This document shows positions 37,879-42,847 of a DNA stretch of 64,000 nucleotides, one piece after another; within the stretch, counting starts at the first letter, position 1, and each line of letters begins with the position of its first letter. Below the pieces are notes generated by a model that was not told where the DNA came from, did no database searches, and saw nothing but the letters and a program-made list of their open reading frames with translations. The stretch is from Escherichia coli O127:H6 str. E2348/69. GTDB taxonomy: Bacteria > Pseudomonadota > Gammaproteobacteria > Enterobacterales > Enterobacteriaceae. The stretch lies in the NCBI RefSeq assembly GCF_000026545.1, contig NC_011601.1. One strand, given 5' to 3'. The position numbers were made by a program, and so were the translations under genes.

Positions 37879-38804
<926 letters not shown>

Positions 38805-38957
38805 TTTCACTTCACGACACTCCAGCCAATTTTGGGAGGAGTGTCGTACCGTTACGATTTTCCTCAATTTTTCTTTTCAACAATTGATCTCATTCAGGTG
38901 ACATCTTTTATATTGGCGCTCATTATGAAAGCAGTAGCTTTTATGAGGGTAATCTGA

Positions 38958-39851
38958 ATGGAACAGCTGCGTGCCGAATTAAGCCATTTACTGGGCGAAA
39001 AACTCAGTCGTATTGAGTGCGTCAATGAAAAAGCGGATACGGCGTTGTGGGCTTTGTATGACAGCCAGGGAAACCCAATGCCGTTAATGGCAAGAAGCTT
39101 TAGTGCGCCCGGAAAAGCCCGACAACTGGCATGGAAAACCACCATGCTGGCAAGAAGTGGGACTGTCCGTATGCCGACTATTTATGGTGTGATGACGCAT
39201 GAAGAACACCCCGGCCCCGATGTCCTGCTACTGGAGCGAATGCGTGGTGTTTCGGTGGAGGCACCAGCCCGAACACCAGAACGCTGGGAACAACTCAAAG
39301 ATCAAATCGTTGAAGCCTTACTGGCCTGGCACCGTCAGGACAGTCGTGGTTGCGTCGGCGCGGTCGACAATACTCAGGAAAATTTCTGGCCCTCATGGTA
39401 CCGGCAACATGTTGAAGTGCTATGGACCACGCTCAATCAGTTCAATAACACCGGTCTAACGATGCAGGATAAGCGGATCCTGTTTCGCACTCGCGAATGT
39501 CTCCCGGCATTATTTGAAGGCTTTAACGACAATTGTGTACTGATTCACGGTAACTTCTGTTTACGTAGCATGCTGAAAGATTCGCGCAGCGATCAGTTAC
39601 TGGCGATGGTCGGACCGGGACTAATGCTTTGGGCACCGCGAGAATACGAACTGTTCCGACTAATGGATAATTCTCTGGCGGAAGATTTGCTCTGGAGTTA
39701 TCTGCAACGCGCGCCAGTGGCGGAGTCGTTCATCTGGCGGCGTTGGTTGTATGTGTTATGGGATGAAGTTGCGCAACTGGTCAACACCGGACGATTTAGT
39801 CGGCGTAACTTCGATCTGGCATCAAAATCACTCTTGCCGTGGCTCGCCTGA
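38958..39851 (+). CDS. ycbJ: Kinase-like protein YcbJ (297 aa)
   Basis: MEQLRAELSHLLGEKLSRIECVNEKADTALWALYDSQGNPMPLMARSF...; 3' end overlaps the convergent elyC by 24 nt. Confidence 0.88.
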   Translation: MEQLRAELSHLLGEKLSRIECVNEKADTALWALYDSQGNPMPLMARSFSAPGKARQLAWKTTMLARSGTVRMPTIYGVMTHEEHPGPDVLLLERMRGVSVEAPARTPERWEQLKDQIVEALLAWHRQDSRGCVGAVDNTQENFWPSWYRQHVEVLWTTLNQFNNTGLTMQDKRILFRTRECLPALFEGFNDNCVLIHGNFCLRSMLKDSRSDQLLAMVGPGLMLWAPREYELFRLMDNSLAEDLLWSYLQRAPVAESFIWRRWLYVLWDEVAQLVNTGRFSRRNFDLASKSLLPWLA

Positions 39852-40607
39852 CGAACCTTTCAGCCACTGCCAGATCCGGCCAAGCGTTTCATAGCCAACG
39901 CGGTCGCTATGCATCAACCAAACCGGAGAAGGGATTGCCCGTTCCCACGGATTAAGCGGCGAGTCGATGGCCAACTGATTCGCCGGGGCTGGTAGCGGAT
40001 TTAACCCTTCCTGCTGAAAAAAGATCATCGCCCGCGGCAGATGTGATGCGGAGGTCACCAGCAGGAAAGGTGCGTCACCAATCGCCTGTTTCACTGCTGC
40101 AGCTTCTTCTTCGGTATCTTTTGGCAAATCCAGGGTGATAATTTGCTCGCGCGGCACGCCCAGCGATTGCGCAACTCTGGCACCTACTTCGGCTGTGCTC
40201 ACCGTATTGGTTTTAGCTACGCCTCCCGTAAAGATCAGTTTTGATCCCGGATTTTCGCGCCATAAGCGAATACCTTCATTCAGGCGTGGCAGACTGTTAT
40301 TGATTAAATTAGAGCTCGGCGCCCACTGCGGGTTCCAAGTATAACCACCTCCGAGCACCACGATATAGTCCACTTTTTGCGAATTATTCCATGTCGGATA
40401 AGTGCTTTCGATGGGACGCAACAGGCGGTCGGCTATCGGTTGCAAACTCAATAACAAGAGCGCCAGCCACCCAATGCTAATAAAAATCTTCCCGGTTTTT
40501 TGAAAACGGCTAAACCACAGCAGCGCCAGGCCAGCGCCAATAATCAACAACATCAGCGGAAGTGGCAGCAACATATTGCCAATCACTTTTTTCAGTGTAA
40601 AAAGCAT
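39828..40607 (-). CDS. elyC: Envelope biogenesis factor ElyC (DUF218) (259 aa)
   Basis: MLFTLKKVIGNMLLPLPLMLLIIGAGLALLWFSRFQKTGKIFISIGWLALLLLSLQPIADRLLRPIESTYPTW... Confidence 0.9.
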   Translation of the reverse strand: MLFTLKKVIGNMLLPLPLMLLIIGAGLALLWFSRFQKTGKIFISIGWLALLLLSLQPIADRLLRPIESTYPTWNNSQKVDYIVVLGGGYTWNPQWAPSSNLINNSLPRLNEGIRLWRENPGSKLIFTGGVAKTNTVSTAEVGARVAQSLGVPREQIITLDLPKDTEEEAAAVKQAIGDAPFLLVTSASHLPRAMIFFQQEGLNPLPAPANQLAIDSPLNPWERAIPSPVWLMHSDRVGYETLGRIWQWLKGSSGEPRQE

Positions 40608-40742
40608 CCTTTCTGGTTCCTTTTTTGACCATATAGCAAGGGATCGCCAGCGATATTACACCAGACGGGTTCATTCTCGCCGTGGCTGTGACAAAATAGC
40701 GTCTTTATCAGAAAACGTCTTAGCCAACCGGTGGAGAAAGCA

Positions 40743-41528
40743 ATGCAGGATCGCAATTTTGATGATATTGCGGAAAAGTTTTCCCGTAACATTTACGGCA
40801 CCACCAAAGGGCAGCTTCGACAGGCTATTCTGTGGCAGGATCTCGATCGCGTGCTGGCGGAAATGGGCCCGCAAAAACTGCGTGTGCTGGATGCTGGCGG
40901 TGGAGAAGGGCAGACCGCAATCAAAATGGCCGAGCGTGGGCATCAGGTCATTTTATGCGATCTTTCTGCGCAGATGATCGACCGCGCAAAACAGGCGGCA
41001 GAAGCAAAAGGTGTGAGCGACAACATGCAATTTATACATTGCGCCGCTCAGGATGTTGCTTCGCATTTGGAAACGCCCGTTGATCTGATATTGTTCCATG
41101 CGGTGCTGGAGTGGGTGGCCGATCCCCGCAGCGTATTGCAGACCCTGTGGTCAGTGTTGCGTCCAGGCGGCGTGTTGTCGTTAATGTTCTACAATGCGCA
41201 TGGTTTGTTGATGCATAACATGGTCGCCGGGAATTTTGATTACGTGCAGGCGGGAATGCCGAAAAAGAAAAAACGGACGCTTTCGCCAGATTATCCACGC
41301 GACCCGGCGCAGGTTTATCTGTGGCTGGAAGAAGCTGGTTGGCAAATTCTGGGTAAGACAGGCGTTCGCGTGTTTCATGATTATCTGCGCGAGAAGCATC
41401 AGCAGCGCGACTGCTATGAAGCATTACTTGAATTAGAAACGCGTTATTGCCGTCAGGAACCGTATATTACCCTGGGGCGTTATATTCATGTCACCGCGCG
41501 CAAACCGCAGAGCAAGGATAAAGTATGA
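40743..41528 (+). CDS. cmoM: SAM-dependent tRNA methyltransferase CmoM/SmtA (261 aa)
   Basis: [73 protein letters not shown]...; start set at the internal Met of ORF 40731..41528. Confidence 0.9.
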
Positions 41529-42847
41529 GTGAATTTTCCCAGACAGTCCCCGAACTGGTTGCCTGGGCCAGAAAAAATGACTTCTCCATCTCGCTGCCGG
41601 TAGACCGACTCTCTTTTCTGCTGGCGGTTGCCACGCTGAACGGCGAGCGTCTGGATGGTGAGATGAGTGAAGGCGAGCTGGTGGATGCATTCCGCCATGT
41701 GAGTGATGCGTTTGAGCAAACCAGCGAAACCATCGGCGTGCGCGCCAACAACGCGATCAACGACATGGTGCGTCAACGTCTGCTGAACCGCTTTACCAGC
41801 GAGCAGGCGGAAGGGAACGCAATTTACCGTCTGACGCCGCTCGGCATCGGCATCACTGACTATTACATTCGTCAGCGCGAGTTTTCTACGCTGCGCCTTT
41901 CTATGCAGTTGTCGATTGTGGCGGGTGAGCTCAAACGCGCAGCAGATGCCGCCGAAGAGGGCGGTGATGAATTTCACTGGCACCGTAATGTTTATGCGCC
42001 ACTGAAATATTCGGTAGCAGAAATTTTCGACAGTATCGACCTGACGCAACGTCTGATGGATGAACAGCAGCAGCAGGTGAAGGATGATATCGCCCAGTTG
42101 TTGAACAAAGACTGGCGGGCGGCGATTTCCAGCTGTGAATTGTTGCTTTCAGAAACTTCCGGCACGCTGCGTGAATTGCAGGATACGCTGGAAGCGGCAG
42201 GCGATAAATTGCAGGCCAACCTGTTACGCATTCAGGATGCGACGATGATCCATGACGATCTGCATTTTGTCGATCGTCTGGTATTCGATCTGCAGAGCAA
42301 ACTTGACCGTATTATCAGCTGGGGCCAGCAATCCATCGACTTGTGGATTGGCTACGACCGCCACGTACACAAATTTATTCGTACTGCGATCGATATGGAT
42401 AAAAACCGCGTCTTTGCTCAGCGGTTACGTCAGTCGGTACAAACCTATTTTGATGAGCCGTGGGCGCTAACTTATGCCAATGCCGATCGTCTGCTGGATA
42501 TGCGTGATGAAGAGATGGTACTGCGCGATGAAGAAGTGACTGGGGAACTTCCTGAGGATCTGGAGTACGAAGAGTTTAACGAGATCCGCGAACAGCTGGC
42601 GGCGATCATCGAAGAACAACTTGCCGTGTACAAAACCAGACAAGTGCCGTTGGATCTTGGTCTGGTGGTACGCGAATATCTGTCACAGTATCCGCGTGCA
42701 CGTCACTTTGACGTTGCGCGCATTGTTATTGATCAGGCGGTACGTCTTGGCGTAGCGCAAGCAGATTTCACCGGACTGCCAGCGAAATGGCAGCCGATTA
42801 ATGATTACGGAGCCAAGGTACAGGCGCATGTCATCGACAAATATTGA
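41525..42847 (+). CDS. mukF: Condensin kleisin subunit MukF (440 aa)
   Basis: [63 protein letters not shown]...; ATGA overlap with the cmoM stop. Confidence 0.96.

Follow-up and report, generated by a model that had tools for sequence, protein, structure and literature searches.

Convergent genes whose coding sequences share their 3' ends were surveyed by Lillo & Krakauer 2007 (PMC2174442), who reported 58 convergent overlaps in E. coli. When the overlap is at least 5 nt long, the two reading frames stand in the phase 123:321 in 33% of the cases, and 20% of the genes engaged in convergent overlaps have a predicted rho-independent terminator. The loss of a stop codon was favoured as the usual origin of these overlaps (PMC2174442).

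The overlap between ycbJ and elyC, which is the subject of this study, has itself appeared in the literature. ExcludonFinder (NAR 2025, PMC12288877) places the pair among 165 convergent excludons of MG1655, on the criterion that an overlap of the two transcripts is seen in 50% or more of 58 RNA-seq samples; its authors argue that such pairs tend toward conservation and mutual exclusivity. A 2025 preprint also notes the ycbJ/elyC overlap, and states that the deletion of ycbJ inactivates elyC. The overlap is an ordinary and already known feature; what is added here is its conservation over the whole family, the one-sided constraint on its sequence, the interlock between stop and serine codons, the natural uncoupling of the two genes by REP-like elements, and outgroups in which the genes are spaced.

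The window that we analysed is a stretch of 64,000 nucleotides (64 kb) from E. coli O127:H6 str. E2348/69, and the positions below are counted from its first letter. The 24-bp stretch common to ycbJ and elyC is TCACTCTTGCCGTGGCTCGCCTGA. Read in the frame of ycbJ, it is TCA CTC TTG CCG TGG CTC GCC TGA (S291 L L P W L A297 stop), and read in the frame of elyC, it is TCA GGC GAG CCA CGG CAA GAG TGA (S253 G E P R Q E259 stop); the codon boundaries coincide on both strands, which corresponds to phase 123:321, and the number of intergenic bases between the two genes is zero. The RefSeq annotation of E2348/69 gives the two genes coordinates identical to those of the list of open reading frames, and the geometry is the same in K-12 MG1655 (b0919, 971752..972645, and b0920, 972622..973401, in RefSeq). 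The initial annotation, which described a 24-bp overlap between ycbJ on the + strand and elyC on the − strand, was exact on this point, since the list of open reading frames, the translations and RefSeq agree. The features discussed in this work are collected in Table 1.

Table 1. Coordinates of the ycbJ–elyC locus in the window, with the evidence on which each feature is based
Feature	Position	Strand	Description	Basis
ycbJ CDS	38958..39851	+	297 aa, YcbJ family phosphotransferase, APH fold	ORF list, RefSeq, Pfam PF01636, NCBIfam NF007890, AF2
elyC (ycbC) CDS	39828..40607	-	259 aa, envelope biogenesis factor, DUF218	ORF list, RefSeq, Pfam PF02698, NCBIfam NF007794
Tail-to-tail CDS overlap	39828..39851	.	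24 bp; YcbJ S291-A297 + stop, ElyC S253-E259 + stop	Sequence and translations
ycbJ stop TGA	39849..39851	+	Reverse complement of ElyC Ser253 codon TCA	
elyC stop TGA	39828..39830	-	Reverse complement of YcbJ Ser291 codon TCA	
Interrupted inverted repeat bracketing the overlap	39813..39876	.	GATCTGGCA...GTGGCT / AGCCAC TGCCAGATC	MFE folds
Published Rho termination region	39326 (about; K-12 972120)	+	Mapped with 800-nt windows	Adams et al. 2021
C-rich, G-poor elyC-strand RNA, candidate Rho loading region (inferred)	39677..39776	-	52-151 nt past the elyC stop	

The protein encoded by ycbJ matches the NCBIfam equivalog NF007890 with 568.7 bits and covers the curated model over 1-297/297, and ElyC matches NF007794 ("envelope biogenesis factor ElyC") with 512.1 bits over 1-259/259; in Pfam, YcbJ matches APH (PF01636) and ElyC matches DUF218 (PF02698). 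Since both proteins match curated full-length NCBIfam models, ycbJ and elyC both look like real protein-coding genes. The locus is, as expected of a convergent overlapping pair, made of two apparently real genes which lie on opposite strands, share their 3' ends and are found together in this way in other species.

The ycbJ–elyC pair resembles the class of convergent overlaps described above (PMC2174442) in that the genes are on opposite strands and share their 3' ends, with codon position 1 opposite position 3 and position 2 opposite position 2. Like most E. coli genes of this class, ycbJ and elyC have no rho-independent terminator. The pair departs from the class in its length, 24 bp compared to a mode of 4 bp (CTAA, TTAA, CTAG, TTAG), and also in that this length is kept over the whole family and that the direction of the constraint can be read, YcbJ being dominant.

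The conservation of the overlap was assessed by scanning species-representative genomes. The best 80 of 225 relatives were used, all of them Enterobacteriaceae, so that Yersiniaceae, Erwiniaceae and similar families fall outside the set; the genera represented are Escherichia, Salmonella, Citrobacter, Klebsiella, Raoultella, Enterobacter, Kosakonia, Leclercia, Lelliottia, Kluyvera, Buttiauxella, Cedecea, Mangrovibacter and others. In each species, both genes were extended to their stops and the length of the overlap was deduced. Among these best 80 of 225, the two genes overlap in 77 species: by 24 bp in 68, by 21 bp in 8 and by 36 bp in 1, and there is no overlap in the remaining 3. In the eight 21-bp loci, elyC ends with TAA or TAG, the antisense reading of a Leu codon of ycbJ (TTA or CTA, respectively), and the overlap of 36 bp is longer because ycbJ is extended. 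Within E. coli, a 61-nt segment that spans the overlap is present at an identity of at least 95% in 5424 of the 5426 complete genomes. In one sense, the overlap exceeds chance, since it is retained in the species set as in E. coli. The initial suggestion that the overlap is probably ancestral rather than novel thus holds, since it is found across Enterobacteriaceae and was already in the literature in 2025.

The overlapping sequence varies in a manner that reveals which of the two proteins is dominant. The column entropy in the overlap sits at the third positions of the ycbJ codons, which is the same pattern as in the flank that belongs to ycbJ only; in the flank that belongs to elyC only, the variation is at the third positions of elyC. 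In the 68 species with a 24-bp overlap (from the best 80 of 225), the YcbJ tail S-L-L-P-W-L-A has a consensus of 94.7% versus 80.7% for the ElyC tail (these percentages are sums of per-position counts), and the alternative residues found in the ElyC tail (E/K/Q, G/R and Q/E/K) are the exact translations of silent changes in the Leu and Pro codons of ycbJ. A PWL motif near the C-terminus of YcbJ persists in orthologues that are only 33-44% identical (NLIPWLE, RLTPWLAY, SLKPWLES), and the DUF218 partners of these distant YcbJ proteins have other endings, ...WWLTLKGKH and ...LWLSLTSPVVKNASTKKISD.

The structural models point in the same direction. The AlphaFold2 model of YcbJ has a pLDDT of 93.2, and its C-terminal helix (residues 282-296) is predicted with a pLDDT above 90, the last blocks being at 92-95. 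The model of ElyC is moderate (pLDDT 73.9), its last helix stops at residue 250, and residues 254-259 have a pLDDT below 50; the last seven residues of ElyC form a tolerant tail, which is probably disordered according to this model. The constraint is one-sided: the YcbJ tail, which belongs to the conserved C-terminal helix, dictates the sequence, and the ElyC tail follows the silent third-position changes of ycbJ.

There may be a reciprocal constraint, which bears on the stop codons. In all 68 species with a 24-bp overlap (best 80 of 225), the ycbJ stop is TGA and the codon opposite is a Ser codon of ElyC. Similarly, the codon of YcbJ Ser291 is TCA in 70 of the 70 overlapping species that have a serine there (best 80 of 225), and the silent sites near Ser291 have an entropy of 1-1.9 bits, which is near saturation. 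This codon is TCG, TCA and TCT in three Citrobacter species whose elyC stop is elsewhere. These observations are suggestive of a lock by which the elyC stop keeps the Ser291 codon as TCA, the comparison being with these three uncoupled species only. The Pro294 codon is also strongly biased (CCC in 63 of the 68 species, best 80 of 225); since the exact length is held in 68 species and the Pro294 codon shows this bias towards CCC, an additional constraint from ElyC or from the RNA could act.

In enterobacteria, the usual place of REP and BIME elements is between convergent genes. The three loci in which ycbJ and elyC do not overlap belong to species of the Citrobacter freundii complex, Citrobacter youngae (L011), C. 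werkmanii (L017) and Citrobacter sp. wls619 (L025), and they resemble this situation: REP-like palindromic insertions of 93, 58 and 117 bp, respectively, are present right after the ycbJ stop, before the conserved end of elyC. In these three species, ElyC ends in ...WQWLKGxEH, where xEH replaces the usual tail. Since three Citrobacter species have separated the two genes by REP-like insertions, the overlap and the last seven residues of ElyC are dispensable. Contrary to these species, E. coli and most genera lack any element of this kind between ycbJ and elyC.

The search for relatives of YcbJ returned only proteins that are at least 86% identical; the outgroups were taken from the representatives of 50%-identity clusters and from their contigs. 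This sample consists of three loci; families placed between Plesiomonas and Enterobacteriaceae, such as Yersiniaceae and Erwiniaceae, are outside it. In the first outgroup (L086), a metagenome contig of Plesiomonas type whose protein clusters with that of Plesiomonas shigelloides, ycbJ and the DUF218 gene converge and are separated by a spacer of 30 bp. A perfect 11-bp palindrome, GGAATAACCGC(N7)GCGGTTATTCC (2026-2066 of this contig), begins in the last codons of ycbJ and fills the spacer, and a U-tract is absent on either side. In the second outgroup (L087), the spacer between ycbJ and the convergent DUF218 gene is 107 bp long. The third (L084, Logan contig SRR18330944_8720) has the order kdsB-ycbJ-cmoM-mukF, without elyC. 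The full gene order of this last contig is msbA-lpxK-ycaR-kdsB-ycbJ-cmoM-mukFEB, without ycaQ and elyC, and cmoM is on the same strand as ycbJ, 92 bp after it.

From the sequences of these outgroups, we infer that the convergent arrangement of ycbJ and elyC predates their overlap. Based on three outgroup loci, the spacer and the original elyC stop would have been lost at or before the base of Enterobacteriaceae. The elyC frame would then have been extended into the end of ycbJ, up to the first antisense stop, provided by the TCA codon of Ser291 when read as its reverse complement. Since then the two genes would have been interlocked, the TGA stop of each one facing a TCA serine codon in the other. 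Such an origin, in which a stop is lost and the frame runs on to the next antisense stop, agrees with the mechanism favoured for the convergent class. The interpretation that we prefer, with a probability that we estimate at about 0.78, is that ycbJ and elyC are two real coding sequences in an ordinary tail-to-tail overlap of ancestral origin, which is a by-product of the loss of a short spacer and not a regulatory device. The locus is in this respect a clear and small example of how tail-to-tail overlaps evolve, where the structured tail leads, the disordered tail follows and the stops appear to lock serine codons.

Regarding transcription, the two genes leave no space for a terminator between them, so that each full-length mRNA must run into the coding sequence of the partner. 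A scan for intrinsic terminators found no site at or just downstream of the stop of ycbJ or elyC. The nearest terminator-like site is a weak 6-bp stem (39725..39741) that lies inside ycbJ, upstream of its stop, and such sites are not enriched over the region (5, compared to 2.8 ± 1.7 in shuffled sequences). An Rfam search of positions 38700-40900 with E ≤ 1 gave no match. The initial annotation stated that there is no terminator between the two genes; this is right as far as intrinsic terminators are concerned, according to the scan, but a Rho-dependent region has been mapped on the + strand inside ycbJ.

This region was reported by Adams et al. 2021 (eLife, Supplementary file 2) at position 972120 of K-12, and we placed it in the window by converting the coordinate via the start positions of ycbJ. 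The counts upstream and downstream of it are 135/18 in untreated cells and 192/140 in the presence of bicyclomycin, with a Rho score of 5.47 and p = 5e-12 (Adams et al. 2021). At the 800-nt resolution of the method, the peak precedes the overlap by about 525 nt on the + strand, and no such region is reported for the − strand. The Term-seq tables of the same study assign no 3' end to ycbJ, elyC or ycbC. Since a Rho-dependent region is mapped inside ycbJ, part of the transcription of the ycbJ strand probably stops before or around the overlap.

The position of this region also suggests premature termination of the transcription of the ycbJ strand, possibly of read-through from kdsB. Further upstream, a terminator-like hairpin (38779-38802, +) overlaps the end of kdsB, and the 153-bp gap between kdsB and ycbJ contains a weak sigma-70-like site (38898-38926, +); both are only consensus matches, and they suggest that ycbJ has its own promoter.

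On the other strand, the RNA that follows the elyC stop is rich in C and poor in G. The 100 nt from 39776 to 39677 (−) contain 37 C and 18 G, which is at the 99.56th percentile of all the 100-nt windows on both strands of the 64-kb window. The bias is only weakly conserved across species (mean C−G of +6.5, about +0.9 sd). A bias of C over G would be expected for RNA that is antisense to a coding sequence. From its composition, the tract is suggestive of a Rho loading region.

We propose that the extensions of both mRNAs would be ended diffusely by Rho, once the ribosome leaves at the stop codon. The initial annotation put forward the hypothesis that antisense or collision effects couple the expression of ycbJ and elyC; such coupling would be weak, since both genes are transcribed at low levels.

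The strongest competitor of this interpretation is that ycbJ and elyC form a functional convergent excludon, where the two genes repress each other through the collision of RNA polymerases or the cleavage of an RNA duplex by RNase III, so that expression of the putative kinase excludes that of the envelope factor and vice versa. We consider it unlikely. The pair has the general look of convergent excludons (PMC12288877), being made of adjacent genes on opposite strands with transcripts that overlap at the 3' end, it is on the "excludome" list of E. coli, its arrangement is conserved over the whole family, and an intrinsic terminator is absent. However, the listing is near-automatic and silent on function, because overlapping coding sequences must, by construction, give overlapping full-length mRNAs.

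The level of antisense RNA deserves more attention. In the wild-type data of Huang et al. 2020 (Table S1c), the sense and antisense signals are 36.4 and 5.4 RPM for ycbJ and 20.5 and 7.1 RPM for ycbC (elyC), and they are 106 and 1.7 RPM for kdsB and 91.6 and 2.4 RPM for smtA, so that antisense is relatively high in the pair compared to its neighbours (about 2%). On the other hand, excludons are defined by reciprocal exclusive expression and by processing by RNase III, and the gene-level data give no sign of this: the antisense signals of ycbJ and elyC do not rise in the RNase III mutants rnc-14 and rnc-38 (Huang et al. 2020, Tables S1b and S1c), and the double-stranded RNA captured by p19 is low for both genes (8-19 RPM), at gene level and at low expression. 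Both genes being weakly expressed, opposing polymerases should rarely meet.

The comparative results also argue against a functional excludon, since three Citrobacter species have uncoupled ycbJ and elyC by REP-like insertions, one outgroup lineage (L084) has no elyC, and the constraint on the YcbJ protein alone explains the pattern of substitutions. A more specific form of this proposal is that the overlap has been kept as a true excludon because it makes the transcription of ycbJ, which is at the end of the msbA-lpxK-ycaQ-ycaR-kdsB envelope cluster, and that of elyC mutually exclusive; we find it more doubtful still. If it were true, the levels of ElyC would be linked to the transcription of the LPS cluster. 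Under the interpretation that we prefer, an ordinary overlap inherited from an ancestor, the locus opens no new question of regulation.

[quoted passage not shown] It takes its appeal from the interrupted inverted repeat that brackets the overlap in the window, the arms of which pair 39813-39821 with 39868-39876 (9 bp) and 39839-39844 with 39862-39867 (6 bp), and from the perfect palindrome that the Plesiomonas-type outgroup has at the equivalent place. The − strand folds across the overlap somewhat better than shuffled sequences (MFE z = −2.27), but the + strand does not (z = +0.19). When 78 sequences are compared, RNAalifold finds 0 pairs at the overlap; an explicit count gives 76.6% of the cells paired versus 76.1% in shuffles, with no covariation, and the pairs 33/96, 34/95 and 59/87 of the inverted repeat are broken in 36-72 of the 78 sequences. 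The pairs that are invariant correspond to Trp and Ala codons.

The inverted repeat was on these grounds (0 pairs in RNAalifold, and a pair count no better than that of shuffles) rejected as a conserved element. It results incidentally from the codons that specify D-L-A in YcbJ and I-W-Q-W in ElyC. As for a bidirectional intrinsic terminator, the overlap has no U-tract and no match in the terminator scan or in Rfam, and it shows neither a consensus structure nor covariation. The idea of a hairpin is already largely refuted.

Last, that the overlap is an artefact of annotation or sequencing, one of the proteins in truth ending earlier, has next to no chance of being right: nothing specific speaks for it apart from the poor conservation and predicted disorder of the ElyC tail, whereas the 3' end of a coding sequence is set by the first in-frame stop, both stops are read directly, the same stops recur in E. 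coli and in the 68 species (best 80 of 225) with the 24-bp overlap, and both proteins match curated models end to end.

The practical value of the overlap is mainly that a clean deletion of ycbJ or elyC damages the partner, because 24 bp are shared. In the Keio design, each deletion reportedly keeps no more of the target gene than its last 21 nt. If this is so, the stop codon of the partner is removed in both the ycbJ and the elyC mutants, and because both mutants would lose it, the phenotypes of ycbJ and elyC in genome-wide screens would be confounded.

Two of the genomes have particularities at this locus. In Escherichia albertii NBRC 107761 (L006), elyC has a premature stop at codon 91, which is W91 in other species (GGGYT*NPQW); this gene is either a pseudogene or the result of a sequencing error in the assembly of the type strain, and the geometry of the 24-bp overlap is otherwise intact. 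In E. coli strain R9 (L083, NZ_CP107164.1), a prophage with Mu-like genes (Mor activator, gp16 family) is apparently inserted inside the last codons of ycbJ, at a point that corresponds to about 39814-39820 of the window, and ycbJ is annotated with 876 nt instead of 894; the other junction of the prophage is about 38 kb away, and only elyC is annotated there.

Overlaps between genes of the same strand are also found nearby: ycaR/kdsB (4 bp, 38058-38061) and cmoM/mukF (4 bp, 41525-41528), and further on mukF/mukE (20 bp, 42828-42847) and mukE/mukB (1 bp, 43532). These overlaps, for which the coordinates in the RefSeq table of L001 were converted to window positions, are of the ordinary operon type.
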